Source of the DNA: a virus
Length of the DNA stretch: 42,855 nucleotides
Reading direction: 5' to 3' (one strand)
Virus genome (UHGV): UHGV-0159603
Below, in pieces: positions 136-35,582 of the stretch. Position numbers and translations under genes: made by a program. The first letter of the stretch is position 1. Each line of letters starts with the position of its first letter. The notes beneath the pieces are model-generated. The model ran no database searches. It had not been told where the DNA came from and worked only from the letters and a program-made list of their open reading frames with translations.

Positions 136-150
136 TTACCTTAAAGGTAT
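136..150. promoter_or_regulatory. TTACC-TTAAA-GGTAT dyad motif upstream of int (member of dispersed TTACC-N5-GGTAA family)
   Basis: 15-mer identical to the reverse complement of the copy at 15603..15617. Confidence 0.4.
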
Positions 151-192
151 ACTCTCATACCGTCATGAAAATGGTTTCTATACGGGTGAATT

Positions 193-1449
193 GTGCTTAC
201 CGATACAAAATTAAAAAACCTCAAGCCGCAGGACAAACTGTACAAGGTCTCCGATCGTGACGGGCTGTATGTAGCTGTGCTTACGTCAGGCACGGTCTCG
301 TTTCGTTATGACTACCGTATCAACGGTCGCCGCGAAACACTGGTAATCGGGCAGTATGGGCGTGACGGTATCAGCCTGGCAGAAGCGCGAGAAGAACTGA
401 TTGCTGCAAAGAAGCTGCTTAAAGCAGGCCAGTCGCCGGCTGCGGCTAAGCGTGACGGTATCAAAAAGATTCGTGGTGCCGAGACGTTTGCGGTACATAC
501 CGACAGTTATATGAAACACGTCATCCTGGCTGACAGTACCCGCGCAATGAAGCAGGCGGTGATCGACCGTGACATACTTCCGGTTCTTGGCAACAAAATG
601 ATGGCTGAAATTACCACATCGATGGTTCGTGATTTGTGTGACCGGATTGTCGAACGCGGTGGTCGGGCAACAGCAGTACAGGCCAGGGAGATCATCAGCA
701 GCGTATACCGTCACGCCAATGACCGTGGTCATGGTTTGTTGAATCCTGCGGCTGACATTAAACCTTCGTCTATCGCCATATTTAAACCACGAGAGCGAAC
801 ACTGACACCAGAAGAAATTGGCCTGTTCTTCCGCACGCTGGATGCCATTGGTGCTATGGGCACTATGAAAATGGCTTTAAAGCTGGTGCTTATCACTATG
901 GTTCGTAAAGGCGAATTCACCAATGCAACGTGGGATGAAATAGATTTTAAAAAATGGACATGGACAATTCCTTCAGACCGCATGAAGGGAAGCCGGGCGC
1001 ACGTTATTTACCTGCCTAAACAGGCACAGGATATATTGGTTGGGTTGCAGATGTGCGCTGGTGGAAGTGAATATCTGGTTCCTGGTCGTTACAATTTCCG
1101 GAAGCCATTATCTAATGCCGCGCTGAACTCTCTGATCGACAGAACGGTGAAAATAATAAATGAAGATGGTGAGCATATTCAGGACTTCACCGTACACGAT
1201 ATGCGCCGTACAGCAAGTACGTTGTTGCATGAGGCTGGTTATCCTTCAGACTGGATTGAAAAGGCTCTGGCACATGAGCAGAAAGGTGTGCGCGCCGTAT
1301 ATAACAAAGCGGAATACGCCAGACAGCGCGCCTACATGTTGCAGCAGTGGGCCGATATGATTGATTCCTGGATTAACGGGGAGCATACGGATCTGATTCC
1401 GTTCTCCCCGTCGAAGTTTGAGAGGTGGATGGAAGACAGTAATAAATAA
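193..1449 (+). CDS. int: Tyrosine site-specific integrase, P4-like family (GTG start)
   Basis: N-terminus MLTDTKLKNLKPQDKLYKVSDRDGLYVAV typical of P4-type integrase arm-binding domain; C-terminal HxxR...Y catalytic region; position at prophage end. Confidence 0.9.
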   Translation: MLTDTKLKNLKPQDKLYKVSDRDGLYVAVLTSGTVSFRYDYRINGRRETLVIGQYGRDGISLAEAREELIAAKKLLKAGQSPAAAKRDGIKKIRGAETFAVHTDSYMKHVILADSTRAMKQAVIDRDILPVLGNKMMAEITTSMVRDLCDRIVERGGRATAVQAREIISSVYRHANDRGHGLLNPAADIKPSSIAIFKPRERTLTPEEIGLFFRTLDAIGAMGTMKMALKLVLITMVRKGEFTNATWDEIDFKKWTWTIPSDRMKGSRAHVIYLPKQAQDILVGLQMCAGGSEYLVPGRYNFRKPLSNAALNSLIDRTVKIINEDGEHIQDFTVHDMRRTASTLLHEAGYPSDWIEKALAHEQKGVRAVYNKAEYARQRAYMLQQWADMIDSWINGEHTDLIPFSPSKFERWMEDSNK

Positions 1450-1451
1450 TT

Positions 1452-2111
1452 CTATCCTTCCTGGACTTTGGTAAGCGTCAGATTTCCGCAGAACACTGCG
1501 CCGGTGTCGATGTACATCTGGTTTGCATACACCAGTGGGTGATGTGCTGGCGTATGACCGAAGATGAACAAATCGGCACCGGTTATCTCCGAGACAATAC
1601 CGTCCTGCGCGTCGCTAACCCGCTCACGATTCCATATCACCATTTCTTCTGGCACTGGCTTATCGAATGCGTATTCGTTGTGCGGGTAGTCTGCGTGACA
1701 GATGACGACCTTCTTATTGCCGGTAACCAGTTCGATAATCATCGGGAGGTTGTTAATCTTTGGCAGAAGGTATTTGAGTTGCACATCCTGCTCAGAATCA
1801 AGTTGGTGCCACCATCCACCGCCGTTTGACATCCAATGTCCGAAACTTCCGCCGTTGACCAGTGCATCCAGCATCATCTGCTCATGGTTGCCACGAACAG
1901 CTCGGAACCACGGCATAGTAATCAAATCCAGGCATTCGACGTTTTCAGCGCCGCGGTCAACAAGGTCACCAACGGAAATAAGTAAATCGCGCGCCGGGTC
2001 GAATGAAACTTTGTCGAGTTCGTTCATCAGCAGCGTGTAGCACCCATGCAGATCGCCGACGACGAAGATATTGCACCAGTCAGCGCCATTGATGCGTTGA
2101 TATAGGTTCAT
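1452..2111 (-). CDS. Ser/Thr protein phosphatase, lambda PPase (NinI-like) metallophosphoesterase
   Basis: GDLHG and GNHE metallophosphatase motifs; start refined to ATG at 2111 (MNLYQRING...), ATGA overlap with upstream gene. Confidence 0.8.
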
Positions 2112-2758
2112 GCAGCACGCTCCCGTCCCTGGTTGTCTGTTGGTGACAGCGGAGCATTGCTGAATGCATTTGTTAATCCGCCAATATCCAACGCGTATCC
2201 AGGGTGTAGTTGCACTGCCGGGTCTTCGCACTGATTACCCCAAACATCGAAGCCATGAGACGTCTGGCGGGCGAACAGTTCAATGCGAGAAACATCGCCT
2301 AATAATTGCACAAGTTTTTCACGAACGATATCTGGCTTTCTTGAATGCTCAAGCCGCGGTGCGGTAAATGACTGAACGATCCCTGCATTAATGCGCGTAG
2401 GTAGTTTTCCCTTTACCGCAAACAGGCAATCTTCACTATTGGCGCGAGTCATGTGTCCCATACCCATAACAAGTTTATCTGGTTGTCGACTACCACATTT
2501 TATCCACGTGAAGCCCTTCATCGTCATCAGACGGAATCCCCAGGCTTCAACAACTTTTAGTGCTTCGAGTGGTTGTGTTGGCACCCACCACATGGCCAAC
2601 AGACAGTTTTCATCGGCCAAATCCCACACGGGAAGGCGGCAGATATCCAGCACACTCATAACCGGATATTTAAAACCGGCACCGCGATTACCATCTGCGG
2701 CTTTGTCCCGGTATACCCAGGGTGGATCTGCATAGATTAGTGTGTATTTCTTAGTCAT
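2108..2758 (-). CDS. MT-A70 family N6-adenine DNA methyltransferase (orphan)
   Basis: YADPPW motif near N-terminus; start ATG 2758 (alternative GTG 2770). Confidence 0.8.
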
Positions 2759-3050
2759 AAACCACCCCACAACATCCTATGCCGCTATAGTCGCCACGGC
2801 GAAGGCCGTTACCTTTTGTGATACATTGGTCCCTGCGAACCGCGATCCTTGCACGTTCAACATCACCAGAAGCAACATCCATACACTGAAGCCAAAGGTG
2901 AGCGGCAATGCGGAACTGCCCTTTTTTCTCTCTTTCAATCGCGCGTTTTTCGATCTCTATCGCCGCAGGAGTAACGGCGACAATCTTTGACGGACTGCGC
3001 ATTGAAACCTTATTCATGTGATATTTTTCAAGTCGGCTTAACTTTCTCAC
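2751..3050 (-). CDS. Hypothetical small protein in leftward early operon
   Basis: ORF between AlpA-like gene and methyltransferase on same strand; start uncertain (GTG 3050 or internal ATG). Confidence 0.3.
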   Translation of the reverse strand: MRKLSRLEKYHMNKVSMRSPSKIVAVTPAAIEIEKRAIEREKKGQFRIAAHLWLQCMDVASGDVERARIAVRRDQCITKGNGLRRGDYSGIGCCGVVYD

Positions 3051-3159
3051 TTAATCCAACCCTCTCTGAAAATTAATGCCAGCAGATAAAGCCATGCTGA
3101 AACAGAGGCCAGGAATAAGTACCATCCTGACCATTTGCTCCAGTGCCTTAGCAGCGCAC

Positions 3160-3408
3160 TCATGCAGCGTTGCTCACGGGACGATATACACGTTGCTGAA
3201 CAGGAGGTTTTTTACCCTGGAACTCTGCCGGGCTTGCTGCCTGACGTTCATCAAGCCAACGCTCAACTTCGTCACGGTTCCATGCGCAGCGTTTGTCAGT
3301 GATATACCAGCGTTTAGGAAATTCCCCTGCGCGCTCCATACGGTCGATAGTGCTCCATGACAGTGGCACCACCGCCAGGAGTTCCTTCTTACCTAATGCA
3401 CCTTTCAT
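3160..3408 (-). CDS. AlpA-family DNA-binding protein (excisionase/transcriptional regulator)
   Basis: 82 aa, MerR/AlpA-like HTH pattern (LSWSTIDRMERAGEFPKRW...RDEVERWL); RBS AGAGAGG before ATG 3408. Confidence 0.7.
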   Translation of the reverse strand: MKGALGKKELLAVVPLSWSTIDRMERAGEFPKRWYITDKRCAWNRDEVERWLDERQAASPAEFQGKKPPVQQRVYRPVSNAA

Positions 3409-3430
3409 AAATACCTCTCTTGGTTGCAGT

Positions 3431-3449
3431 GCGGCGCGTGTGGCGCCGC
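3431..3449. promoter_or_regulatory. GC-rich inverted repeat GCGGCGC-GTGTG-GCGCCGC between bet and the AlpA-like gene
   Basis: Perfect 7-bp arms, no T-tract on either strand; possible protein-binding site or RNA structure. Confidence 0.3.
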
Positions 3450-3457
3450 GGTGGTGG

Positions 3458-4399
3458 TTACATAGATGTTTCGTTTAATTCTTCCCGACGAACGCTGTAA
3501 ACGTCGGTGGCTTTTGCCAGCAGTTCGTCATCATCTGAAAGTTTTTGTGCAATGTATTTGTAAGCCTTATCCAGTTCGGAGACAGTGCTGTAATTCATCG
3601 CTGCGCTGGTAAAGGCCATCAGCATTTCTTCTGGATCACGGCTATCCGCTTTACGAGTTTGCTCATCAGGCTTTTTCACTGGTTTAGCGTTGATCAGACT
3701 GTTCATTCCCGCAGCAGTGGTCGTTTGCGGAGTAATGTCTCGCTCAACGCGCGGTGCCGTTTCCTGTAACTCGTCTGGTGTGTAGACGCCCATGATTACG
3801 TCAGGACAGTGCAAGCGAGACCAGCGTTTTGTCGCAAGGTATGCGAGTTGTTGTTTCGGATCACTGGCCCAAAGTGTGGAGTTTCTTACCTGTGCTTGAG
3901 ACAGCATTAACTCAAGCACTCGAGGTTGATCCTCGCCCTTCATGGTTGCCCATACGCGAACACCGCAGCCTTCTTCGTCTTTTAGAGTCCAGCCTGGTGC
4001 GATATATGGATTGCCGTTTTTGGATGTTTTCTCAACAAACTTACCGATCACGCGTTCCCACGGCCCGAACCACTCGTAGTTGATGCGATCTTTTGTTGGC
4101 GACATCGTTGAGATAACTGCGTTTACTAATTGGGCTTCATAACCTAGCGTGCCGTTCACAACATGGGTTTTCTGAGCCACGGCAAACGGGTTCATTCCCC
4201 ACTGCGCAGCCTGCATTGCCACGGCCATGCAATCAGCTGGTTTCCCGGCGAGGTGCGCCGGTACCGTTACGCGGCTTTGCGCCATTACCTCGGCGAATTT
4301 CATCAGTTGGTTCAAGCCGTCTGGGCTGAAAATAGTTGCAGCAGTTCCAGCGATTGCTGTGTCTACTGGTGCGTTGATGTTTGCGATGTCGTTGCTCAT
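3458..4399 (-). CDS. bet: Single-strand annealing recombinase, lambda Bet (Red-beta) family
   Basis: C-terminal region resembles lambda Bet (PERDITP / ..RDITPQ, WSRLHCPD..); start refined to ATG 4399 with AGGA RBS and ATGA overlap with exonuclease. Confidence 0.7.
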   Translation of the reverse strand: MSNDIANINAPVDTAIAGTAATIFSPDGLNQLMKFAEVMAQSRVTVPAHLAGKPADCMAVAMQAAQWGMNPFAVAQKTHVVNGTLGYEAQLVNAVISTMSPTKDRINYEWFGPWERVIGKFVEKTSKNGNPYIAPGWTLKDEEGCGVRVWATMKGEDQPRVLELMLSQAQVRNSTLWASDPKQQLAYLATKRWSRLHCPDVIMGVYTPDELQETAPRVERDITPQTTTAAGMNSLINAKPVKKPDEQTRKADSRDPEEMLMAFTSAAMNYSTVSELDKAYKYIAQKLSDDDELLAKATDVYSVRREELNETSM

Positions 4400-5217
4400 A
4401 TGTACATATCCTGTTTGCGTGCCCACTCAGGGCGTTTAATGATTTCCACACCGCCCCATTCATCATTTATGCGGCATTCGTGATAGGTATTCAGATCCCG
4501 GCGGAACAGAGCGTTCCCGGCATCGACATCCGGCGCATCCAGCTCGAACACGCGTACCGGATACCGACCACAATCAATGCTTTCGCTCACGGCAAGAAAG
4601 AAAAAACCATGCGGCTGACCAGTAACCCTCATTGCGCCTTCGCGGTACATTGCGTCCTGCACGTGGTAGCGGAATTCCTCGATGTGGCGTGCAAAACGGT
4701 CCATATCTGCAACCTTTTTCACGTCGACGATCACGTTGTGCTCGTTCAGCCATTTGTCTGGACGAATGCGGCACAACTCACCAGTCTCTTCATCATTCCA
4801 GTACATTGATGCTTCGCAGTAACCAGGTGCTTCCAGCATCCAGCGTGCCGCCGGGTGAGCCATTGCGCTATCACGCATCAGCTCCAGTTTCCGCCACTGC
4901 TCGGCATCAAGTACCGTAATCCCCATATCCGCTACATCACGAAGAAATGCTTCTTCGTCAGCTTTACCTTGTTTCGTCCGACGATCGAACTTCGGTGAAA
5001 CAATGAAGCGTTTGTCGAATTCTCCAGGCTCCAGAAGCAGACAGTGCAATGCGGTTCCAATATCCAGTGCAGACTTTTTCTCTTCGTCTTCTGGTGCTGC
5101 CTGGACCCATTTAAGAAGCGCCGGATTCTTGGCAACCATGTCCAGTTGCGACTTACTCACGCCGTCACCGGCGTGGTAGTCTTCGTTGCTGATGTCGAAA
5201 TAAATTCCCGGTTTCAT
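4396..5217 (-). CDS. PD-(D/E)XK-family exonuclease (recombination partner of Bet, DUF3799-like)
   Basis: 273 aa, immediately upstream of and translationally coupled to bet; RBS AGAGGGA. Confidence 0.55.
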   Translation of the reverse strand: MKPGIYFDISNEDYHAGDGVSKSQLDMVAKNPALLKWVQAAPEDEEKKSALDIGTALHCLLLEPGEFDKRFIVSPKFDRRTKQGKADEEAFLRDVADMGITVLDAEQWRKLELMRDSAMAHPAARWMLEAPGYCEASMYWNDEETGELCRIRPDKWLNEHNVIVDVKKVADMDRFARHIEEFRYHVQDAMYREGAMRVTGQPHGFFFLAVSESIDCGRYPVRVFELDAPDVDAGNALFRRDLNTYHECRINDEWGGVEIIKRPEWARKQDMYI

Positions 5218-5513
5218 GCCGCGTCCCTCTGTCCATCAAGCTGATCCGCCAGATCCCAGCGGGCGATAATTGCCATTGCCTCTCGCCGATAGGCATCCAT
5301 CAGTTCTTCGAACTCAGGGCTGTCTTTAGCAGCCTCCAGTACTTCCTGACGAACGCCTTTGCCTGTTACAACGTCAAAAGTTGAGGACAGTTGATGAAGT
5401 CGGATGCTCTCAATCAGTTCAACTTGTCGGTCATATAGCTGTTCTGACAGGCGGTAGTCCTTGTCGAATGCCAGCATGATTTTTTGAAGATTTTTCTGCT
5501 GATTAACGTTCAT
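5214..5513 (-). CDS. Hypothetical protein (early-left operon)
   Basis: Start ATG 5513 preceded by GGGAGGG RBS; ATGA overlap with exonuclease gene. Confidence 0.5.
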   Translation of the reverse strand: MNVNQQKNLQKIMLAFDKDYRLSEQLYDRQVELIESIRLHQLSSTFDVVTGKGVRQEVLEAAKDSPEFEELMDAYRREAMAIIARWDLADQLDGQRDAA

Positions 5514-5515
5514 TA

Positions 5516-5668
5516 TCAGCCCTCCCATATCTCGTTATCGTTGGCCACATCGCGAGCTTCTTTGCTGACGAAAGCCCACTTAATGCCTTCCTGTAAGGTG
5601 CGGAACTTCCAGCTCATGAATCCGCATGCAGTAACGCAGTACCAACCGTTGATGATTTTCCACTGCAT
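5516..5668 (-). CDS. Small hypothetical protein, 50 aa (MQWKIINGWYCVTACGFMSWKFRTLQEGIKWAFVSKEARDVANDNEIWEG); below the ORF-track size cut-off
   Basis: ATG 5668 with GAGGT RBS 8 nt upstream; stop TGA 5516-5518 abuts next gene RBS; first gene of leftward operon. Confidence 0.4.
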   Translation of the reverse strand: MQWKIINGWYCVTACGFMSWKFRTLQEGIKWAFVSKEARDVANDNEIWEG

Positions 5669-5687
5669 AACTTGTTACCTCGGTCTG

Positions 5688-5764
5688 TTACCGTTGAGGT
5701 AATAATTATGCGTATCTGGTTTGATGTCAATAGATATGAGTTAAAAAAATTACCCGTTAGGTAA
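5688..5764. promoter_or_regulatory. Leftward early promoter/operator region (OL-like) with two TTACC-N5-GGTAA sites (5688..5702, 5750..5764)
   Basis: TTACCGTTGAGGTAA and TTACCCGTTAGGTAA between repressor terminator and first leftward gene. Confidence 0.55.
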
Positions 5765-5775
5765 TCGAATAGGCA

Positions 5776-5799
5776 ATAAAAAAGCCGCCATAAGGCGGC
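5776..5799 (-). terminator. Rho-independent terminator downstream of repressor gene
   Basis: GCCGCC-ATAA-GGCGGC hairpin followed by T-run on minus strand. Confidence 0.65.
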
Positions 5800-5821
5800 T
5801 TACTTACTGAAAAATATGATT

Positions 5822-6406
5822 TTATTGTTTGTTTTTTTCGTTCTGGTTGATGACAAATTCAATGTAACTTTCGATCTTTGCTTTCTCGGTTTCGGGTAAC
5901 AATGCGTAGCGCGAGCGGTCATAGTTGATAGTCGCAGGGTCGTGCGGGTGAATCAGTAATTCATAGCCATGACGCCCGAATGCGGATGCAACATTCTCCA
6001 GGGTGGAAATGGAAACGCTGACCTCATTGTTTAACAGGCGGCTGATTGTCACCTGGGCGACGCCGGATGCGCGGTGAAGTTTTCCCTGTGTTGAAAGGTC
6101 GCGGCTTTCGCTCATCCAGCGTTCCAGGTTGTGAGCCGCCAGCTGACCAATGTCGCTTGGTCCGACAGGCTGAAAACCCTCCTGAGAAAGCGAGCGATCG
6201 ATATCAAGCCAGTTACGTGGTTTATTGGCGACAGCTTCAATTTTTCGCGCAACCTGGTCGCCGATAACCTTCTTGCCAAGAGCCCAGCGGTTTACCAGAT
6301 TTGCCTGAGTTCCAAGTTTTTCAGCCATCCGCGTCTGAACACCATTGAATTCACGGTCGATCAAGTCGTTGAGATTTTGCCTGCGGACGTCCTGGATACT
6401 TTTCAT
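5822..6406 (-). CDS. Prophage repressor (CI-like), tandem HTH domains, no recognisable S24 peptidase autocleavage domain
   Basis: Two XRE-like HTH segments; divergent from Cro-like gene across an operator-rich 154-bp intergenic region; no GDSM-type serine motif. Confidence 0.6.
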   Translation of the reverse strand: MKSIQDVRRQNLNDLIDREFNGVQTRMAEKLGTQANLVNRWALGKKVIGDQVARKIEAVANKPRNWLDIDRSLSQEGFQPVGPSDIGQLAAHNLERWMSESRDLSTQGKLHRASGVAQVTISRLLNNEVSVSISTLENVASAFGRHGYELLIHPHDPATINYDRSRYALLPETEKAKIESYIEFVINQNEKNKQ

Positions 6407-6461
6407 TTTCTGGAAAATCGCCTCATATCTGAATCAGAAGATGATTCAATTTAAAGCAATA

Positions 6462-6524
6462 TTACCCAACAGGTAAATGCACCTCATGGGTAACTATCCT
6501 TGATTTTTGTTACCTTATAGGTGA
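6462..6524. promoter_or_regulatory. Divergent promoter/operator region (OR-like) with three dyad sites: 6462..6476 TTACCCAACAGGTAA, 6479..6493 GCACCTCATGGGTAA, 6510..6524 TTACCTTATAGGTGA
   Basis: Three copies of the TTACC-N5-GGTAA dyad between divergent repressor and cro-like genes, mirroring lambdoid OR1-3. Confidence 0.65.
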
Positions 6525-6560
6525 ATATTTATTATCTGAAATAAATATCAGGCAATAGCT

Positions 6561-6791
6561 ATGAGCGATAACGGACATTTCGATTTCAAAAAGCACTGGC
6601 TTGCACTTACTCCGGATGAGCGTGAAGCCTTCGCACAGGAAGCCGGAACGACGAGTCACTATATCCAGACTCACTTAACAGGTAAGCGCAAAATGCCAGG
6701 TAAGGTATTGATGAATGGGCTTTTTAAAGCCTGTAAATCAAGACAATGGCTGCGCTCAAAAGCAGAACTGGCATACTTCTTCTACTCATGA
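6561..6791 (+). CDS. Cro-like / YdaS-like HTH regulator
   Basis: 76 aa, divergent from repressor, HTH-like segment AGTTSHYIQTHLTGKRKMP. Confidence 0.5.
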   Translation: MSDNGHFDFKKHWLALTPDEREAFAQEAGTTSHYIQTHLTGKRKMPGKVLMNGLFKACKSRQWLRSKAELAYFFYS

Positions 6792-6813
6792 TATCCAGCC
6801 ACAACCCTCTGTA

Positions 6814-6836
6814 GACCGCCATCCGGCGGTCTTTTC
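6814..6836 (+). terminator. Rho-independent terminator after cro-like gene (tR1-like)
   Basis: GACCGCC-ATCC-GGCGGTC followed by TTTT. Confidence 0.6.
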
Positions 6837-6846
6837 ATATCTATTC

Positions 6847-6861
6847 GCACCTCAAAGGTAA
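6847..6861. promoter_or_regulatory. Dyad motif GCACC-TCAAA-GGTAA
   Basis: Member of the dispersed TTACC-N5-GGTAA family, between the tR1-like terminator and the next gene. Confidence 0.4.
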
Positions 6862-6941
6862 TAAAAAACCAAATCTGGTTGATCTTTTTTTTGTGTCAGC
6901 ACAAAATGACCGTAATCCCAATACTAATAACAGGGCTTACC

Positions 6942-7142: not shown

Positions 7143-7157
7143 TAGCGGAGATTAATC

Positions 7158-7973
7158 ATGAGCAGACATGCAACAGATTGGGCCTGGGAGACAGATCCAG
7201 GTAGCTCGTCATTAAAGCTCATACTGCTCTCGATGGCTGACAGAGCAGATGAATATAACCTCTGCTACCCCAGCATAGAACGCCTCGTTAAAGACACTTG
7301 CCTGAATAAAAAAACCGTGCAGGCCGGACTTATATCGCTCATGAAAATGGGGCTTATTTCAGATACCGGAGAGAGAAAGGGAGCGACGAAAAGAGTGCGG
7401 GTTTTCTCTCTTAATATAACCAAAAACGGGAACATTAAAGGCAACCGGGAAGGGGGTAATGAACCCGAAAACGGTAATGTTACCGAAAACGGGAATATAC
7501 CCAAAAACGGGATGTTGAATGATCCCAAAAACGGGATGTTGAATGATCCCAAAAACGGGATCCAGAACCAGTCATATAACCAGTCATTTAACCAAGAGAG
7601 GGAGAGCAGGACAAAAACCGGGGATTCTGTGCCTCATGACCCCGGCGCAAACAACGCCGTGATGAATAACTTTGTTCCTCCTGGTGGGCCAGGGCAATTA
7701 GGCAAATTTGTCATGCATGAACAATGGCAGCCATCAGATGACTTTCTTCGGAAAAGCTCATTGCAGGGGATCTACCTGGACAGTCTGCCAACGGCACAGG
7801 AACTTGCAGAGTTCAGAATTTACTGGATGGCTGAGGGTAAGGCATACCATCAGGCACAGTGGGAGCAGAAGCTGGCAAGGCGGCTGCAGATTAGCAGACA
7901 GAAGCAATCAACATTACCTGATAACAACGTTCCGCACTGGAACAGCCCTGAAGCATGGGAGGATTTCTTGTGA
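7158..7973 (+). CDS. Replication initiator (lambda O-like role) with iteron-containing central region
   Basis: N-terminal HTH-like replication-initiator domain; origin-type iterons inside the gene; immediately upstream of P-like gene. Confidence 0.55.
   Translation: MSRHATDWAWETDPGSSSLKLILLSMADRADEYNLCYPSIERLVKDTCLNKKTVQAGLISLMKMGLISDTGERKGATKRVRVFSLNITKNGNIKGNREGGNEPENGNVTENGNIPKNGMLNDPKNGMLNDPKNGIQNQSYNQSFNQERESRTKTGDSVPHDPGANNAVMNNFVPPGGPGQLGKFVMHEQWQPSDDFLRKSSLQGIYLDSLPTAQELAEFRIYWMAEGKAYHQAQWEQKLARRLQISRQKQSTLPDNNVPHWNSPEAWEDFL
7420..7560. repeat. Replication origin iterons: six direct repeats CC(A/G)AAAACGG(G/T)A
   Basis: Copies start at 7420, 7465, 7483, 7501, 7525, 7549 (spacing 18-24 bp), followed by ACCAGTCAT x2 AT-rich segment. 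Confidence 0.65.
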
Positions 7974-8755: not shown

Positions 8756-8792
8756 TACCAGCGCGATAGCGCATTTTTTTACGTCTATATGA

Positions 8793-8869
8793 TTACCTGG
8801 AGGGTAATAAAATGTTCTAATCTCTATTGATTTCATGTCTTATGTGGTTTTTAATTACCTAAGGGGTAA
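8793..8869. promoter_or_regulatory. Two dyad sites (8793..8807 TTACCTGGAGGGTAA; 8855..8869 TTACCTAAGGGGTAA) upstream of nin-like gene block
   Basis: TTACC-N5-GGTAA family; second copy overlaps the RBS of the 8873 gene. Confidence 0.5.
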
Positions 8870-8872
8870 ATC

Positions 8873-9226
8873 ATGAGAAAACAGATACAGGCTCTTGGTC
8901 GACTCAAAACAGGCCAGATGAACAAAACAGAATCTGCGTATTGCCAGCACCTTGAGCTGCGTAAACGTGCAGGAGAAATCGTCTGGTATCGATTTGAGGG
9001 TATCAAGCTGCGGTTAGCTGACAACTGCTTCCTGACTGTAGATTTTGCCGTGATGTTGGCTGACGGGCAGTTGGTGATGGTGGACGTTAAGGGAAGTAAG
9101 TCAGTCTTTACTGACGATGCGAGAGTCAAGATGAAGGTTGCGGCAGACAGCTATCCGTTTGTCTTTCAGGTTGCTTATCCAAAACCTAAAAAGCTCGGTG
9201 GTGGATGGGAGGTTGAGGAACTATGA
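8873..9226 (+). CDS. DUF1064-family phage protein
   Basis: Pattern HLELRKRAGEIVWYRFEGIKLRL...VDFAVMLADGQLVMVDVKG consistent with DUF1064. Confidence 0.45.
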   Translation: MRKQIQALGRLKTGQMNKTESAYCQHLELRKRAGEIVWYRFEGIKLRLADNCFLTVDFAVMLADGQLVMVDVKGSKSVFTDDARVKMKVAADSYPFVFQVAYPKPKKLGGGWEVEEL

Positions 9227-9831: not shown

Positions 9832-9892
9832 ATCGACGATCTTTTTAGTTATCAATGTAATCAATAAGTTATGTGGATAAGCGAGGGTAAAG

Positions 9893-10971: not shown

Positions 10972-10972
10972 T

Positions 10973-12604: not shown

Positions 12605-12645
12605 GAGTAGATTATGCATGATGAATTTGATGGGTTTTGAATACT

Positions 12646-12671
12646 GCCGCCAACTATGGCGGCTTTATTTT
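12646..12671 (+). terminator. Rho-independent terminator after nin-like block
   Basis: GCCGCC-AACTAT-GGCGGC then TTTATTTT. Confidence 0.65.
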
Positions 12672-12682: not shown

Positions 12683-12715
12683 TTACCACAACGGTAACAA
12701 TTACCAGGGTGGTTA
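12683..12715. promoter_or_regulatory. Tandem dyad sites TTACCACAACGGTAA (12683..12697) and TTACCAGGGTGGTTA (12701..12715) before terminase genes
   Basis: TTACC-N5-GGTAA family; second copy overlaps RBS/start of small terminase gene. Confidence 0.5.
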
Positions 12716-15598: not shown

Positions 15599-15602
15599 GA
15601 TT

Positions 15603-15617
15603 ATACCTTTAAGGTAA
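15603..15617. promoter_or_regulatory. Dyad site ATACC-TTTAA-GGTAA overlapping the moron RBS
   Basis: TTACC-N5-GGTAA family; 5 nt upstream of ATG 15598. Confidence 0.45.
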
Positions 15618-15631
15618 TTTGCGGTCATCAA

Positions 15632-15657
15632 GCAAAAAAATGCCCGGCGAACCGGGC
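15632..15657 (-). terminator. Rho-independent terminator downstream of tRNA
   Basis: GCCCGG-TTCG-CCGGGC followed by T7 run on minus strand. Confidence 0.65.
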
Positions 15658-15820: not shown

Positions 15821-15897
15821 TGGCGTGGTATGCAGGATTCGAACCTGCGACCAACCGCTTAGAAGGCGGTTGCTCTGTCCAACTGAGCTAATGCCAC
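15821..15897 (-). tRNA. tRNA-Arg (anticodon UCU), phage-encoded
   Basis: Minus-strand cloverleaf: D-arm GCTCAGTTGGACAGAGC, anticodon loop CTTCTAA, T-arm GCAGGTTCGAATCCTGC, 3-prime CCA encoded; one C-A mismatch in acceptor stem. Confidence 0.8.
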
Positions 15898-16219: not shown

Positions 16220-16234
16220 TTACCTGAAAGGTAA
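16220..16234. promoter_or_regulatory. Dyad site TTACCTGAAAGGTAA upstream of head-gene operon
   Basis: TTACC-N5-GGTAA family, about 90 bp upstream of ATG 16325. Confidence 0.45.
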
Positions 16235-16324
16235 TAATTTGTGCGTTAAATGTCAACTATCTACGATAAATAAATCATATGTGGTTAAATTGGTAATGAT
16301 TTAATTGCGTACGGAGTCATTGAT

Positions 16325-29823: not shown

Positions 29824-29828
29824 ATTAA

Positions 29829-32303
29829 ATGAGACAGGAATGTATACAAGCGGTCCAGCAGGCGGCGCAGCGCACGTTAACGGCGCGAGAAATACAGAAC
29901 ATTGAAGACCGCATTTATCGAAATATGCGCTCCATTGCTCGTGATGACCCGATGTCGTGGAGACAACTTTCCGAATCAGAGCGGCTATATCGTGCAGCAC
30001 AATTGGCATCTGAAGAATTACAGCGAGAAGCGGCATTAAAGAAACGTCGTGTGGCCCTCACTATAGCCGCACGTCAGAGATTGGATAAATTTATCAATAG
30101 CTATCAAGGGGCTGATGGGAAACTTGGCGCTCTTAACCGTACTATTGCTTTTAATGCAGACGGTAAATCGAATTTCCTCTCTGTGGAGTCCAGAACAAAA
30201 GCCACTCGTGATTATGCATTGAGTCAATTGCAAGAGGCATTTGAAGCAGTTGATCCTCGCTTTTTTGGCCTGTTTGAAGATGAAGCTGGCGTGCGTGACC
30301 TGGTATATGAAATGCGAGGGCAAAATACTGGCAATGCTAAAGCAAGAAAAGGTGCTAAGGCGTGGAGAGAAGTGACAGAGCTACTGCGCCGCCGGTTTAA
30401 TGATGCTGGTGGGGACATTGGCTATCTCGAAAACTGGGGGATCCCTCAACATCATTCTATGGAAAAGGTTGGGGCGGTATCAAAAGATAAATGGGTTAGC
30501 GATGTTATAGGTAAGCTGGATCGCAAATATTATACCCGAGCCGATGGACAACTGATGAACGATGCCGAGTTGTCTGCATTTCTTGGAGAGGCTTATAACA
30601 CGATCGCTACTGGTGGGCTGAATAAGCTTACTGATACTGGAATGCGAATTTCCGGCGCACGTGCTAACCGTGGTAATGCATCACGACAGATACATTTCAA
30701 AGATGCAGATTCCTATCTCCAATATCAACAACTTTATGGTGATCGCTCTCTATGGGAAATCATGGTCGGTCACCTGGAAGGTATCAGTAAAGATATTGCT
30801 CTGGTGGAAACATATGGCCCAAACCCCGATCATGTTTTCCGTTCCCTTCTTGATCAGGTGAAGGCAGAAACGGCAACAGCTAACCCGAGTAAAACCGGTA
30901 GCGTCGAGCGGCTGGCGAACAAAACAGAGAACCTGTACAACTTTATTTCCGGAAAGACACAGCCTGTTGCGAATCCTCACATCGCGCGCTGGTCTGACAA
31001 TATCAGAAACTGGCTGGTTGCCAGCAGACTCGGATCCGCGTTGCTGTCATCGTTCTCTGATCTTGGAACCATGTATCTGTCTGCGAAGGTTACCAACCTT
31101 CCAATGAACCAGTTATTCCGCAACCAGCTTGAAGCTATGGACCCAACGAACCGTATAGAACTTGCGCGGGCGCGCCGCGCTGGTCTGGCGATGGAATCTC
31201 TACTTGGCAGCGTTAACCGCTGGGCGATGGATAATATGGGGCCGTCTGTGTCTCGTTGGGCGGCAACGGCGGTAATGCGTGCCAGTGGGCTTACAGCATG
31301 GTCAGATGCGCACAAGCGCGCCTATGGCGTAACCATGATGGGAAGCCTGGGAGAAGTAGTGTCACGGACACCAGACCTTCGTAGCCTCGATGATTCTGAT
31401 TTTCGTATCCTGAAAAGCAAAGGGATTACTGACACAGACTGGAGCGTATGGAAGCTGGCGCAACAGGAGGACTGGGGGAACGGTAATAATACGATGCTGA
31501 CACCGGAAAGCATTATGCGTATCCATGATTCAGCAGTTAAACATCTTGGTGAGCCTGAACGCGTGAAATTTGAGGCAATGCGTAAACTGCTCGGTGCCGT
31601 AACTGAAGAAGTTGATATGGCTGTTATTACACCGGGCGCACGTGAACAGATGTTCGTAGGGTCTGGTCTTCAGCGTGGAACATGGAAAGGTGAATTAACG
31701 AGAAGTGTTTTCCTGTTTAAATCGTTCCCTATCTCGGTAGTTATGCGTCACTGGCATAGAGCTATGGGGATGCCGTCTGCTGGTGGGCGTGCGGCATATA
31801 TAGCAACGTTTTTAGCAAGCACAACCATGCTTGGTGCTCTTTCCATGCAGATTACTGATCTTATTAATGGGAGAAATCCAAAAGAAATGACCGGTGACAA
31901 CATGGTTAAATTCTGGATAAATGCATTTTTAAAAGGTGGTGGGGCAGGGTTGTATGGTGATTTTCTTTTCTCTGACCACACCAGGTACGGGAGCGGCGCA
32001 CTAGCGTCGATGCTTGGCCCGGTAGCTGGTCTGGTTGATGACGTAGTGAAGATTGCTCAGGGCATACCGTTAAATGCTGTGGAAGGGAAGAATGAGCAGA
32101 CTGGTGGTGATTTGGTTAAGCTTGGGAAAGGTTTGATGCCTGGTGCGAATCTCTGGTACTTGAAGGCGGCTCTCGATCACATGATCTTTAACCAGATGCA
32201 GGAGTATTTTTCACCAGGCTATTTGCGTAAAATGGAGCAACGTTCAAAGAAAGAGTTTAACCAGACATACTGGTGGCGACCTCAGGATGTCACTCCGCAA
32301 TAA
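29829..32303 (+). CDS. Internal virion/ejection protein (large)
   Basis: 824 aa, last large gene of ejection block. Confidence 0.45.
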   Translation: MRQECIQAVQQAAQRTLTAREIQNIEDRIYRNMRSIARDDPMSWRQLSESERLYRAAQLASEELQREAALKKRRVALTIAARQRLDKFINSYQGADGKLGALNRTIAFNADGKSNFLSVESRTKATRDYALSQLQEAFEAVDPRFFGLFEDEAGVRDLVYEMRGQNTGNAKARKGAKAWREVTELLRRRFNDAGGDIGYLENWGIPQHHSMEKVGAVSKDKWVSDVIGKLDRKYYTRADGQLMNDAELSAFLGEAYNTIATGGLNKLTDTGMRISGARANRGNASRQIHFKDADSYLQYQQLYGDRSLWEIMVGHLEGISKDIALVETYGPNPDHVFRSLLDQVKAETATANPSKTGSVERLANKTENLYNFISGKTQPVANPHIARWSDNIRNWLVASRLGSALLSSFSDLGTMYLSAKVTNLPMNQLFRNQLEAMDPTNRIELARARRAGLAMESLLGSVNRWAMDNMGPSVSRWAATAVMRASGLTAWSDAHKRAYGVTMMGSLGEVVSRTPDLRSLDDSDFRILKSKGITDTDWSVWKLAQQEDWGNGNNTMLTPESIMRIHDSAVKHLGEPERVKFEAMRKLLGAVTEEVDMAVITPGAREQMFVGSGLQRGTWKGELTRSVFLFKSFPISVVMRHWHRAMGMPSAGGRAAYIATFLASTTMLGALSMQITDLINGRNPKEMTGDNMVKFWINAFLKGGGAGLYGDFLFSDHTRYGSGALASMLGPVAGLVDDVVKIAQGIPLNAVEGKNEQTGGDLVKLGKGLMPGANLWYLKAALDHMIFNQMQEYFSPGYLRKMEQRSKKEFNQTYWWRPQDVTPQ

Positions 32304-32312
32304 GGAACAACA

Positions 32313-32726
32313 ATGAAGGAATTATTGCTGTTATCGGTATTTTTGATATACGCTTGCTCGACATCCTATGATGTTTATGACGGTGTTGATAAGGCATATT
32401 GCGACAAAGTTAAAATGGATTTTTCTCTTGCCAAGACGGCGAAGGATAGTTGTATTGATCACTACGTCAAGACTTATACCAAGCCAGCCTCATCGGCATC
32501 TGATATTGCTGAAGGTGCTGTGTTTGAGTGTAACAAGGTGATATCCATCGCAGCGAGTTCTTCATACGATGCTGCTGTATGTGCAATGGCTGAAAGAAAC
32601 GGCATGTCAGTGCAAAAAATTAATAGCATGATAAGCAGTAATGACGAAGCCAAAATAAGAACTGATATCAGCTCGGTGAAAAAAGATGCCATGAACAGAG
32701 TTGTAAAATATCAGTCATCTTTATAA
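32313..32726 (+). CDS. Small exported protein, possible lipoprotein
   Basis: N-terminal signal-like LLLLSVFLIYAC followed by Cys; AAGGAA RBS. Confidence 0.5.
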   Translation: MKELLLLSVFLIYACSTSYDVYDGVDKAYCDKVKMDFSLAKTAKDSCIDHYVKTYTKPASSASDIAEGAVFECNKVISIAASSSYDAAVCAMAERNGMSVQKINSMISSNDEAKIRTDISSVKKDAMNRVVKYQSSL

Positions 32727-32729
32727 GTC

Positions 32730-32741
32730 GTGACATGTCAC
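32730..32741. repeat. Perfect 12-bp palindrome GTGACATGTCAC (copy 2 of 2)
   Basis: Identical to 12593..12604; 4 nt after stop codon and 1 nt before terminator stem. Confidence 0.6.
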
Positions 32742-32742
32742 A

Positions 32743-32766
32743 GGCCGCTTTCGCGGCCTTGTTTTT
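32743..32766 (+). terminator. Rho-independent terminator ending the virion operon
   Basis: GGCCGC-TTTC-GCGGCC followed by TTGTTTTT. Confidence 0.7.
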
Positions 32767-32925
32767 AACGAATGCCACCGCCACCCGGGCGGGAATCCGC
32801 AGAACGCCCACCGCAGCGGGAGCCGTCAGCGGCAGTATCGCTGTCGTGCTGACAACGACCGGCAAAGGCCTGAGTTGAAGCTACCAGAGACAACAAAACG
32901 AACAGTGCAGCAAATGCTTTTTTCA
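32765..32925 (-). CDS. Small predicted secreted peptide (53 aa, signal peptide plus 31-aa Cys-containing tail)
   Basis: MKKAFAALFVLLSLVASTQAFA signal-like N-terminus; own sigma70-like promoter (TTGACG..17..TATAGA) and terminators on both sides. Confidence 0.4.
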
Positions 32926-33003
32926 TTGTGAAATTTCCATCTATAAGCCACCTCAATGTGGCGTCAATGAGTGTAGCACTGGCTTTTGTTTCGTCCACAA
33001 AAA

Positions 33004-33018
33004 AGCCCGCAGCGCGGG
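33004..33018. terminator. Bidirectional hairpin terminator GCCCGC-AGC-GCGGGC with flanking A/T runs
   Basis: Directly after stop of the 33019..33885 gene on minus strand. Confidence 0.55.
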
Positions 33019-33885
33019 CTATTCTTTTTTGCTATTTCTTTGATATATATTTCTTCCATTTTTGGTAACACGAATAACGTGCCCCCTGGATTCTACTTTG
33101 TTATTTGTTGCTTTATATACTTCAAAATCAAACCATGATATATAACTTATTTCGTCAATAGACACCATGATCTCAAGTCCTGGCACTTTCTTTCTGCTAA
33201 TTCCTCTTATTGCTGCAGTCCGCTTGACCTGTATTTCTCCTGGATAAGCATTAGTGAATGTGACAGATAAGTTGTCTTTGTTCCTGTATCCTGACATTAA
33301 AGGAACAAAAGATATGTGCTGATGCGGAGCCTGATTTTCCGTTGGTTCACCAGAACCATTTATTATTCCAACATACACTTTGTTTGATGATAAAGTAATC
33401 AGCATTGGTCGTTTAGGATCCGATTCAATAGCATCAAGCAATAGTAAGTCTAAAGAACCTTGCGAGTAAGTTTTTCGCAGTACTCTGGCCTTCATTGCCT
33501 CTGTTTTTTGCTCGTAAATATCACGTTTATAAAAACAACCAAGAAGAAAATCTTTCACCCACACAACAGACACATAACACAAAGAGAAGCAAATGGATGT
33601 GGCTGAGAGAAGAAGCAGCCACATGTAAATTCTATCTGTTTCTGGTTTTGACGTTACATTAAAAGTTTCCACCATATCGTGAACTAGGTGAAAATCAGGA
33701 TATTTATATTTTATAAATGCGGCAATTATTACCGAAGCAACAAGGCAATATGTACCTAATGCAGCTACTTTCATATAAAGAAGCTGGCCTTCATGTCGGT
33801 ATAAACGGAAATAATGATACTGGTTAGCGGTTATCATAATATAACCACTAACCAGAATGGGGATAATTAGAAGAGCTAACAACAC
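33019..33885 (-). CDS. AT-rich moron: membrane protein with N-terminal TM helices and roughly 170-aa C-terminal soluble domain, unknown function
   Basis: About 35% GC versus about 50% surroundings; opposite strand to virion genes; start GTG 33885 or ATG 33837. Confidence 0.55.
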   Translation of the reverse strand: MLLALLIIPILVSGYIMITANQYHYFRLYRHEGQLLYMKVAALGTYCLVASVIIAAFIKYKYPDFHLVHDMVETFNVTSKPETDRIYMWLLLLSATSICFSLCYVSVVWVKDFLLGCFYKRDIYEQKTEAMKARVLRKTYSQGSLDLLLLDAIESDPKRPMLITLSSNKVYVGIINGSGEPTENQAPHQHISFVPLMSGYRNKDNLSVTFTNAYPGEIQVKRTAAIRGISRKKVPGLEIMVSIDEISYISWFDFEVYKATNNKVESRGHVIRVTKNGRNIYQRNSKKE

Positions 33886-34094
33886 TATTTTCTGACAGTG
33901 GCAAGATCCTGTTTAACGATTGCAGCAGCGAGACGACGCATCTCCTTAACCTCAGGAAGCTCAGAAATTTGCTGTGATGAGATATACACACCACCACGCT
34001 TGTTAACCTGCGCTGACGCCGGAACTTCTGCATTTTTTGCCTGAGGGCTGGGTGCATTATCCCTCGTTTTTGTACGAGCGAACCAAAATCCCAT
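33885..34094 (-). CDS. Small hypothetical protein (69 aa) upstream of and overlapping the membrane-protein gene
   Basis: GGAGGAG RBS before ATG 34094; stop overlaps downstream GTG by 1 nt. Confidence 0.5.
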   Translation of the reverse strand: MGFWFARTKTRDNAPSPQAKNAEVPASAQVNKRGGVYISSQQISELPEVKEMRRLAAAIVKQDLATVRK

Positions 34095-34120
34095 ATCTCC
34101 TCCTCATGTAAACACATGGT

Positions 34121-34135
34121 TTACCTTTAAGGTAA
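34121..34135. promoter_or_regulatory. Dyad site TTACCTTTAAGGTAA upstream of the 69-aa/membrane-protein operon
   Basis: TTACC-N5-GGTAA family, 27 nt upstream of ATG 34094. Confidence 0.45.
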
Positions 34136-34183
34136 TAGTACGCTATTCACCCCCGGTCTGCAATCTGTACAGAATTATTTAAA

Positions 34184-34199
34184 GGCACATCCATGTGCC
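34184..34199 (-). terminator. Hairpin GGCACAT-CC-ATGTGCC downstream of Bro-N gene
   Basis: 9 nt after stop, followed by A/T-rich run on minus strand. Confidence 0.4.
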
Positions 34200-34207
34200 G
34201 CCGCCCG

Positions 34208-34918
34208 TCAGAAGAACCCTGCCTTGTCATTGATGTACTCTGCGTGTGTCTGGATATCACGCAGGCATTTGCTCACACCGACGATGTAGCAGAACATGGT
34301 GGTCAGCTCCGCCGCCGCGCCCGATACGTCGTGCCCGTCGTCCTGTAACTGGTTCAGCAGATTCATCAGCAGTGAGTTCTCCGTCAGGCCGAGAACACCA
34401 GACGGAGAATGAATCAGACTGCGGTAGCCGGGCTTCAGTGGGGCGCTGTAGGTTTTGTTCTCTATCTTCATTGCCTGCATCACTGCTGATGCTGTGGCGT
34501 TGGCTACCTGGTCGGCAACCATCTTTATGCGTTCTTCCTGCGGGAGCGAGTTTTTAATGTAACTTCCGGTGCGGCGGATCTGAGGAAGAACCTCACCTGT
34601 AACCCATTTACGAAAGCGATAGGGGATAGTGCCTGGTGTCACCGCATCGCGGCAGCGGAGGATCAGTGTGTAGAGGCCTGACTCGGAGATGATGTTGATC
34701 TCTTTTACTCGGCTGTCAAAAATTGCACGATGTTCATGCCCTATGTTGAACATAGACCTTTCATCATCATCCAGTTTTTCAAGTGCTTGAGTGACGTTTT
34801 GGATACGCAGCGCACTACAAACGTCTTGGGCTACAAACCATGGTTGGCCATCAATAATGATGGAACGGATAGGGTTAACAGATTCAAATTTGAAGATGGC
34901 AGTTTGAGCATTAGCCAT
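34208..34918 (-). CDS. Bro-N domain protein (prophage antirepressor-like)
   Basis: N-terminal Bro-N pattern (FESVNPIRSIIIDGQPWFVAQDVCSAL...); C-terminal about 70 aa paralogous to the 35234..35491 product. Confidence 0.65.
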   Translation of the reverse strand: MANAQTAIFKFESVNPIRSIIIDGQPWFVAQDVCSALRIQNVTQALEKLDDDERSMFNIGHEHRAIFDSRVKEINIISESGLYTLILRCRDAVTPGTIPYRFRKWVTGEVLPQIRRTGSYIKNSLPQEERIKMVADQVANATASAVMQAMKIENKTYSAPLKPGYRSLIHSPSGVLGLTENSLLMNLLNQLQDDGHDVSGAAAELTTMFCYIVGVSKCLRDIQTHAEYINDKAGFF

Positions 34919-35073
34919 GGTGGTTATCTCCACTTAGTGATTTTAATCACCACCGCAACGCCAATTACTGGTGGTGAACTGGACAAGGTTGGCGTACCGG
35001 CCTAAGTGGTACCGGCGTCCTTTCGGACCCCTGCCCAGCCCACCATAATTCGGATATAGCTGTGCTTAACGCA

Positions 35074-35097
35074 TAAAAAAACCACGTCTGGCGTGGT
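35074..35097 (-). terminator. Rho-independent terminator after the 85-aa gene
   Basis: ACCACG-TCTGG-CGTGGT hairpin followed by T7-8 on minus strand. Confidence 0.55.
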
Positions 35098-35130
35098 ATG
35101 CGCCACTTAGTAACTCGGGACGCCAATCCC

Positions 35131-35152
35131 GGCACTGGATTTTGCCAGTGCC
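35131..35152. other. Stable hairpin/palindrome GGCACTGG-ATTTTG-CCAGTGCC in the 300-bp leader upstream of the Bro-N gene
   Basis: Perfect 8-bp arms, no T-tract. Confidence 0.3.
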
Positions 35153-35187
35153 CGATTACTATGGCACAAGAGGAGTGCGATGTAAAT

Positions 35188-35202
35188 TTACCGCAAAGGT
35201 AA
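35188..35202. promoter_or_regulatory. Dyad site TTACCGCAAAGGTAA
   Basis: TTACC-N5-GGTAA family, in leader region upstream of Bro-N gene. Confidence 0.4.
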
Positions 35203-35233
35203 ATATAAGCACTCCACTTGGTAATTGCAAACC

Positions 35234-35491
35234 TTATCTGGTTTGTTTTCGTAATTGTTCGGCACAATAGTCGAGATGTGTTTGCAGATCCCGCATAGAC
35301 ATCTGTGAGCTGGTGACGTAGTTAATCAGTGCAGTCAGTTCGGCAAGTGGGCCATCGACATTAAATCCATCCTTATCGAGCTCCCGGAGTAATTTCATCA
35401 AGTGCGATCCCTCCACCAGTGATCTGACGCCTCCCGGCGTGTGAATCCTTTCGGTAAATCCGTCTTCCAGTGGATAGTGATACTGCTGCAT
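35234..35491 (-). CDS. Small protein (85 aa) paralogous to Bro-N protein C-terminal domain; candidate SOS-inducible antirepressor
   Basis: Alignable with C-terminus of 34208..34918 product (RIHTPGGVRSLVEGSHLMKLL vs SLIHSPSGVLGLTENSLLMNLL; MRDLQTH vs LRDIQTH); ATG 35491 with GGAGAAG RBS; LexA box 22 nt upstream. Confidence 0.6.
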   Translation of the reverse strand: MQQYHYPLEDGFTERIHTPGGVRSLVEGSHLMKLLRELDKDGFNVDGPLAELTALINYVTSSQMSMRDLQTHLDYCAEQLRKQTR

Positions 35492-35511
35492 CTTATCTTC
35501 TCCATGCAATA

Positions 35512-35529
35512 ACTGTATAAATATACAGT
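35512..35529. promoter_or_regulatory. LexA (SOS) box ACTGTATAAATATACAGT
   Basis: Matches CTGT-N8-ACAG consensus with AT-rich spacer; sits over the promoter of the 85-aa gene. Confidence 0.7.
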
Positions 35530-35567
35530 ATCAAATAATTTGTTTGCTATCCAGCACGTTTTGCGAA

Positions 35568-35582
35568 TCACCTGAAAGGTAA
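35568..35582. promoter_or_regulatory. Dyad site TCACCTGAAAGGTAA in divergent region before tailspike gene
   Basis: TTACC-N5-GGTAA family. Confidence 0.4.

Follow-up and report, generated by a model that had tools for sequence, protein, structure and literature searches.

The stretch examined here is the UHGV virus genome UHGV-0159603, a window of 42,855 bp (i.e., the whole of the DNA that was analyzed) that carries an E. coli prophage integrated at guaA. Our subject is a short inverted repeat of this prophage, TTACC-N5-GGTAA (hereafter, the dyad), together with the prophage repressor, Rep, that probably reads it. The prophage is an epsilon15/phiV10-type podovirus, with an immunity region 98% identical to those of phages phiV10, PAS61, and phiv142-3 (genus Uetakevirus), and not the lambdoid phage supposed by a first-pass annotation made from the letters alone; dispersed sites are universal in this genus. 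The related prophage of E. coli TCM3e1 likewise lies at the guaA 3' end, with yfgI, yfgH, and yfgG beyond it, as in the window. Our analysis indicates that the dyads are very probably promoter operators of Rep that together would form a genome-wide regulon. The regulatory genes on which the argument turns are the following:

5822..6406, minus strand: Rep, prophage repressor of 194 aa with two domains of helix-turn-helix (HTH) type
6561..6791, plus strand: Cro-like small repressor of 76 aa, matching phrog_35 ("transcriptional repressor") with an E value of 9e-13
35234..35491, minus strand: Ant, homolog of the antirepressor of phage SPC32H
35513..35528: consensus LexA box CTGTATAAATATACAG, immediately upstream of ant

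A pattern search of the window, with expectations taken from dinucleotide-preserving shuffles of the same sequence, returned 9 exact copies of the dyad against 0.03 expected (0 of 100 shuffles reached 9) and 15 matches with at most one mismatch against 0.69 expected, bearing out the overrepresentation that had first been noticed by eye. With up to two mismatches allowed, we obtained 38 matches versus 12.3 expected, so that matches of this class are mostly due to chance; sites 6479 and 6847, which have two mismatches each, thus owe their inclusion to position and synteny alone. More specifically, an exact dyad occupies the place equivalent to 6479 in epsilon15, SPC32H, and BUCT711, and a dyad with one mismatch occupies the place equivalent to 6847 in phiV10 and Tyrion. 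All 16 start coordinates given in the first-pass annotation proved correct (i.e., 136, 5688, 5750, 6462, 6479, 6510, 6847, 8793, 8855, 12683, 12701, 15603, 16220, 34121, 35188, and 35568). On a hand-curated gene map, each of these 16 sites lies entirely within non-coding DNA, which makes up 7.7% of the prophage, and the probability that 14 of the 15 sites with no more than one mismatch would land there randomly is ~4e-15. The fifteenth, at 38549, falls within a coding sequence and lacks a syntenic counterpart, and is therefore attributed to chance. When 55 exact sites from seven further genomes were combined into a matrix, the motif widened to 17 bp, A-TTACC-nnWnn-GGTAA-T, with A or T as the central base in 96% of sites. 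Window sites scored between 15.7 and 23.2 bits against this matrix, except for 12701 (8.3), 6847 (8.1), and 6479 (4.8), and the Uetakevirus-type 17-bp dyad ATTACC-N5-GGTAAT is present in the window as 9 exact and 5 one-mismatch copies.

Consistently, the same word stands out in related phages. When all dyads of 5-mers with gaps of 1 to 9 were ranked without bias, TTACC with a gap of 5 was the most over-represented in phiV10, epsilon15, SPC32H, Tyrion (an Enterobacter phage), BUCT711 (a Klebsiella phage), and the window. In GTDB (one genome per bacterial species), Rep homologs were found in six more species, namely Superficieibacter, Erwinia dacicola, Klebsiella pneumoniae, two Citrobacter, and Scandinavium, all of which carry the dyad in the same syntenic pattern; the motif is thus conserved in related prophages, a comparison that the first-pass annotation had itself proposed. 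The dyad was absent in distant relatives that match the Rep N-terminal domain alone (Hydrogenovibrio, Thiomicrospira, and Paraburkholderia). At least 120 stretches in IMG/VR contain two exact dyads 61-63 bp apart, almost all in contigs of up to ~44 kb, the size of these phages, and a search of that database with Rep returned near-identical copies only. In syntenic intergenic alignments of ten genomes, the dyads form islands of identity within recurring promoter cassettes: the flanks vary freely between genera and the 10 half-site bases are constant.

A part of these sites had been annotated before. The GenBank record of the Salmonella phage epsilon15 (AY150271.2) lists "protein_bind, repressor, lysogeny" features with the sequence ATTACC-N5-GGTAAT at equivalent positions, i.e., before terS, before the head operon, between gp19 and the tailspike gene, at three places left of the repressor gene (OL), and at one place before the RuvC/nin block; sites of the window match these positions at OL, terS, head, tailspike/ant, and nin. 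The three OR sites and the second copy of each pair are unannotated in the epsilon15 record, and the phiV10 record annotates terminators only.

Around rep and cro, and at the promoters of the early units, the putative operators and their neighboring elements are arranged as follows:

5688..5702: OL proximal operator, exact; the final T of the PL -10 doubles as its outer T
5730..5702, minus strand: promoter PL, TTGACA-17-AATTAT by promoter scan, abutting the operator in a layout kept in 10 genomes
5750..5764: OL distal operator, exact; 62 bp separate it from its proximal partner, and the PL -35 follows 19 nt downstream
5801..5782, minus strand: rep terminator, preceding the OL distal operator
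6462..6476: OR operator nearest rep, exact, overlapping the -35 of a possible rep promoter
6479..6493: OR middle operator, two mismatches (GCACC...GGTAA), 17 bp from 6462
6510..6524: OR operator inside PR, one mismatch, between -35 and -10
6847..6861: post-tR1 operator, two mismatches, after the tR1-like terminator 6813-6832
8793..8807: Pnin distal operator, exact, just 3' of the terminator after gene P
8855..8869: Pnin proximal operator, exact, 62 bp from 8793; a TTGATT-17-TTTAAT promoter ends on its first T

Three dyads between the divergent rep and cro genes and two at the leftward promoter PL, both already reported in the first-pass annotation, form the classical clustering of an immunity operator and support this assignment. 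The three OR dyads are 17 and 31 bp apart. PR was placed by promoter scan at 6507-6535 (TTGTTA-17-TATTAT), with a conserved TTGATT just upstream in all genomes, and the middle dyad is centered ~44 bp upstream of the presumed rep start, much as lambda OR2 lies relative to PRM. A LexA-like palindrome, CTGAAATAAATATCAG, was seen at 6536-6551, after the PR -10 and ahead of the start codon of cro; it occurs in phiV10-type genomes (Tyrion, Superficieibacter, and Erwinia), not in epsilon15-type ones. Site 6847 takes a distal position, 17 nt upstream of a conserved promoter-like element (TTGATC-N16/17-CAAAAT) before the replication genes, and the phiV10 record marks a terminator at the place equivalent to the one preceding 8793. 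Within the DnaT-like gene, we noted 4-6 iteron-like repeats of CCCAAAAACGGGAT with a period of 18-24 bp (7409-7564), which are probably the replication origin.

PL and Pnin follow one plan, consisting of a terminator, a distal dyad, ~19 nt, a -35 (TTGACA or TTGATT), 17 nt, and a -10 that shares its last T with the proximal dyad. The paired dyads at PL and Pnin were 61-63 bp apart in all 20 cases from the 10 genomes. Promoters predicted by the scan overlap dyads 6510, 15603, and 35188, and a -10 fused to the dyad together with a -35 reached a score of at least 9 in three site-orientations, against ~0.08 expected from a background rate of 0.24%. The cassettes themselves are paralogous dispersed repeats (families D3, D4, and D10), which suggests that they spread by duplication. 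The dyad could accordingly be imagined as a by-product of duplicated promoter cassettes, or as a core-promoter element for RNA polymerase, with no dedicated binder at all, given that the sites lie within these longer repeats and that their first T is the last -10 base at several promoters. We consider this extremely unlikely, because the half-site bases stay fixed while the flanks diverge between genera, because the symmetry, the fixed N5, and the central A/T are typical of dimeric HTH sites, and because the distal copies lie outside any core promoter.

Sites 8855 and 12701 bear on another possibility, raised in the first-pass annotation, that the dyads act as 5-bp RNA hairpins controlling translation or mRNA stability. 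Both hold the Shine-Dalgarno (SD) sequence of the downstream gene: the right half of 8855 contains that of the DUF1064 gene (ATG at 8873), with a very short leader, and 12701 spans that of terS (GGGTGG) and adjoins its ATG at 12715/12718. The palindrome also gives AGG in the transcript in either direction. Yet the stems amount to only -2 to -7 kcal/mol, a pair is broken in 26 of 36 single-mismatch variants, and no compensatory double change was found at any syntenic site; the stem sequence is invariant and shows no covariation, the distal dyads upstream of -35 would escape transcription, and Rfam returned nothing at the dyad sites. An RNA function is thus very unlikely, and with it falls the hairpin alternative. 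The SD overlap claimed at the same time is real at 8855 and 12701, whereas the assignment of 15603 to the ribosome-binding site (RBS) of an accessory gene is probably wrong, since the site lies in the spacer and -10 of a promoter. More specifically, the PHROG profile begins at residue 9 (the second ATG) of the open reading frame (ORF) downstream of 15603, so that this dyad is read as a promoter operator rather than an RBS element.

The remaining putative operators precede the terminase, head, tailspike, accessory, and integrase genes:

12683..12697: terS upstream operator 1, exact, 20 nt after the terminator 12646-12663
12701..12715: terS upstream operator 2, one mismatch, 18 bp from operator 1
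15603..15617: operator of the leftward 272-aa accessory gene, one mismatch, in the spacer and -10 of its promoter
15628..15600, minus strand: promoter of the 272-aa gene, ATGACC-17-TATAAT, preceded by a terminator (15657..15642)
16220..16234: single operator upstream of the head operon, exact, ~55 nt before a conserved late box; the epsilon15 equivalent is labelled "repressor"
34121..34135: exact operator where the leftward 69-aa/288-aa unit begins; on the minus strand, a -10-like TACTAT ends on its first T
35188..35202: operator of the leftward unit of isrK and C4 RNAs and a Bro-N antirepressor, exact; TTGCAA-17-TATATT (35230..35202) ends on its first T
35568..35582: operator between divergent ant and tailspike, one mismatch, upstream of the ant -35 region and the tailspike late box; the epsilon15 equivalent is labelled "repressor"
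136..150: site between attL and int, one mismatch (GGTAT), flanked by inverted Int arm-type sites
38350..38364: remnant of a lysis-upstream operator, of which the right half-site GGTAA (38360-38364) alone is left

The position of these sites next to terminators raises the question of whether repressor-bound dyads halt read-through RNA polymerase instead of blocking initiation, as the term "stoperator-like" in the first-pass annotation implied. Most clusters do lie directly after intrinsic terminators (5782-5801, 6813-6832, 12646-12663, and 15642-15657, in line with the phiV10 terminator annotations), and terS lacks a good promoter and has its second site abutting the start codon. On the other hand, the dyads are symmetric, hence without orientation bias; they are intergenic rather than inside operons, number only ~16 with each at a unit boundary, and coincide in fixed register with -35 or -10 elements at PL, PR, Pnin, the promoter of the Bro-N unit, and the 15603 unit. 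Symmetric dyads that overlap or flank -35 and -10 elements in intergenic promoter regions do not fit that label, and roadblocks in place of promoter repression appear unlikely. The two mechanisms are compatible, and at terS and the sites following terminators a roadblock could possibly reinforce the repression of promoters.

At terS, the annotated phiV10 start (TTG at 41) was seen to lie upstream of the intrinsic terminator and both operators, and the start used in epsilon15 and Tyrion is the ATG at window position 12715/12718, directly after the second operator. Upstream of head (16276-16297) and tailspike (35612-35633), a shared late box, CATATGTGGTT-N7-GGTAAT, was observed, with a lysis variant, TATATGGTTTATTGTGTATGAT, at ~38372-38390; the box is conserved from E. 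coli to Klebsiella phages and may be a late-activator site or a core promoter of unusual type. A single dyad stands upstream at head, tailspike, and (in relatives) lysis, ~40-55 nt before the late box and ~50-65 bp from the conserved core. Only this longer late box scores as a repeat (family D10); CCATATATGG was rejected as a second enriched motif, as it gave 19 matches against 16.8 expected at up to two mismatches window-wide. A tRNA-Arg (TCT) gene (15821-15897, minus strand) sits between the head-operon operator and the 272-aa accessory gene, and is found at the same place in SPC32H and TCM3e1.

Between the 35188 operator/promoter and the Bro-N antirepressor gene (34933..34208), Rfam detected an isrK Hfq-binding RNA (35075-35151, 67 bits) and a C4 antisense RNA (34967-35050, 66 bits), both on the minus strand; by analogy, this unit is a P1/P7 immI-like antirepressor control module under a putative Rep operator. 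In the TCM3e1 sister prophage, we noted an extra DUF2335 unit and a YafO-family toxin unit (the toxin gene preceded by an ORF), and these additional modules each carry their own TTACC-N5-GGTAA site upstream (34504, 35564, and 35689). At int, site 136..150 is framed by Int arm-type sites GTGACGGTAT (127-136) and ATACCGTCAT (157-166), a site type annotated in epsilon15. Its A-to-T mismatch, GGTAT, is kept in every relative and yields a TATACT hexamer only 15 nt from the best -35-like hexamer, and the site may serve as an operator, an Int site, or both. Near the prophage ends, a 32-bp terminator-like repeat (88% identical) at 42-73 and 40390-40421 marks attL and attR at the guaA 3' end, and the host genes yfgI, yfgH, and yfgG begin at 40461. 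A full lysis-upstream dyad lies beside O-antigen modification genes in phiV10 and epsilon15; our prophage has none of these genes, which adjoin the lysis-upstream site in phiV10, epsilon15, and SPC32H, and its tailspike gene ends at 38347.

Rep is the favored binder of the dyads. It shares 99.5% identity with phiV10 p40 and the ZX5 repressor, and is homologous end to end to SPC32H Rep (PDB 5D50; E value 1.4e-41, residues 1-190). The SPC32H Rep tetramer binds palindromic DNA, with N-terminal domain pairs coming from different dimers; one tetramer is enough for repression, and Ant inactivates Rep (PMC9638917). Overexpression of the ZX5 repressor abolished free phage and lowered holin and endolysin mRNA by >99.9% (PMC9782041). 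Judged from these homologies and from the sites themselves, binding of Rep to the dyads is strongly implied. The Reps of the phiV10, Klebsiella, and epsilon15 types are 42-45% identical overall (53-56% in the N-terminal and 40-44% in the C-terminal domain), and yet the N-terminal segment "NLVNRW" and its surrounding residues are invariant. This segment is probably the recognition helix, and its invariance fits a half-site that is unchanged across phages. The Cro-like protein probably binds the dyad too; its HTH stretch, AGTTSHYIQTHLTG, is invariant in five genomes.

A binder other than Rep could be Cro alone, one of the PerC-like/AlpA-like genes (2751-3408), or a host protein, and this binder may act as an activator at the late promoters. 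That the Cro HTH stretch varies no more than the Rep helix, that the late-promoter dyads stand roughly 50-65 bp upstream of the conserved core, and that phages with Reps only 42% identical carry identical sites would all suit such a protein. However, the triple rep/cro cluster together with the PL pair is the hallmark of an immunity repressor, the sites are ascribed to the repressor in the epsilon15 record, and the constant half-site is explained by the invariant Rep segment; we know of no host regulator with this consensus. We therefore regard another binder as quite improbable.

Release from repression appears to run through Ant. Rep is an XRE/HTH_3-type protein for which Pfam gives HTH families only, and no S24 peptidase domain was found in it. 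The ant promoter combines dyad 35568, at a distal position, with the LexA box CTGTATAAATATACAG at 35513-35528, which is conserved in phiV10 (20822), epsilon15 (19841), and SPC32H (19958). Since this box precedes ant, induction probably occurs via LexA-controlled Ant rather than by repressor cleavage. We also observed that Ant is nearly identical between phiV10-type and epsilon15-type phages, whereas their Reps, the Ant-binding C-terminal domain included, are only ~40% identical.

Under the Rep-operator reading, the genome would consist of terminator-insulated transcription units, nearly every one of which would start with an operator; a predicted promoter lies beside or under the operator at most units. 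Because terminators insulate the units, each would have to be repressed separately. In the lysogen, with the copies occupied, one protein would directly shut the early-left, early-right, replication, nin, terminase, head, tailspike, antirepressor, and accessory units, and repression would do without a lambda-style antitermination cascade; no N or Q antitermination genes were recognized in the window. The first-pass proposal of one regulator for early, late, and accessory units is thus very probable, with copies found before nearly every other transcription unit as well. Three promoter layouts recur: (i) PL and Pnin combine a distal operator, ~19 nt ahead of the -35, with a proximal operator that would cover the transcription start, 62 bp away center to center (about six helical turns); (ii) PR, the 15603 unit, and possibly terS have an operator in the spacer or over the -10; and (iii) head, tailspike, lysis (in relatives), and the LexA-controlled ant have a distal operator only. 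Because SPC32H Rep is tetrameric, the simplest reading of the paired operators (17-18 or 62 bp apart) is a single tetramer on two dyads that would clamp the promoter.

Several points weigh against this picture. The "repressor" labels of epsilon15 may be purely computational, the promoter assignments come from consensus matching only, and sequence cannot tell Rep from Cro as the dyad binder. Between the terminator and the ATG of terS, no -35/-10 pair could be placed convincingly (likewise, no convincing sigma-70 -35 was found for int), and the terS sites may work differently, e.g., as a roadblock or by occlusion of the RBS region on the DNA. A single distant upstream dyad at the late promoters suits activation or looping as well as repression, and the lysis-upstream dyad of epsilon15 and phiV10 is next to conversion genes, which a lysogen has to express.

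As epsilon15 sites were annotated and the SPC32H repressor structure was solved beforehand, the system is not new, and the architectural regularities described above are refinements of a known system rather than a new class. Epsilon15 (gp38 repressor) shares the 17-bp dyad, syntenic places, genus, and gene order with the window; gp38 is only 42% identical to the Rep of the window, which has extra copies at the accessory units 15603, 34121, and 35188 and has half lost the lysis-upstream site. The Rep/Ant switch of the Salmonella phage SPC32H (PDB 5D4Z and 5D50) shares full-length Rep homology, an Ant homolog with a LexA box, and the same dyads. Full-text literature searches for the motif returned nothing relevant, and we did not find the 62-bp pairs, the fusion of -10 and dyad, the late box, or the constant operator across divergent Reps described in the searchable literature.

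Outside this group, phage P1 C1 has many scattered operators, one of them before the c4-icd-ant immI operon, and these are asymmetric 17-mers. The P1 C1 regulon is closest in logic, with one immunity repressor and operators at the promoters of many unlinked operons, and operator 35188 likewise stands before a C4-type antisense RNA and an antirepressor gene; C1 is a different protein family, however, whereas the site of the window is symmetric and Rep has an XRE-type HTH. The stoperators of mycobacteriophage L5 and cluster A are asymmetric, share one orientation, lie within transcribed regions, and block elongation. Many copies of a repressor site outside the immunity region are common to both, but the sites of the window are perfect, symmetric dyads, intergenic, and in several cases coincide with a -35 or -10, so that the asymmetry of stoperators and of P1 C1 operators is not shared. 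As in lambda, a tripartite operator separates the divergent repressor and cro genes and operators occur at PL; unlike in lambda, 11 of the 16 sites lie outside OL/OR, and Rep lacks an S24 autocleavage domain.

These observations suggest how epsilon15/phiV10-type prophages, which are common in E. coli (including O157 and other STEC), Salmonella, and Klebsiella, are probably kept silent: repression appears to be direct at every terminator-insulated unit, as opposed to the two master promoters of lambda. The sites provide a ready map of candidate Rep targets, correct gene starts such as that annotated for phiV10 terS, and predict that lysogens keep the accessory genes of these prophages silent, except where the dyad is missing. 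A bolder proposal, which we hold to be rather doubtful, is that the genus runs its whole program on one operator "word", with a Rep tetramer that clamps PL and Pnin between dyads exactly 62 bp apart (a very tight promoter loop), a remote switch at late promoters, and shared immunity; the late dyads would then be remote timing switches for Rep, Cro, or both, possibly including activation. If this were true, mutual immunity at the level of DNA would extend across the phages of Escherichia, Salmonella, Klebsiella, Enterobacter, Citrobacter, and Erwinia, because operator and recognition segment are invariant, and specificity would then lie elsewhere.

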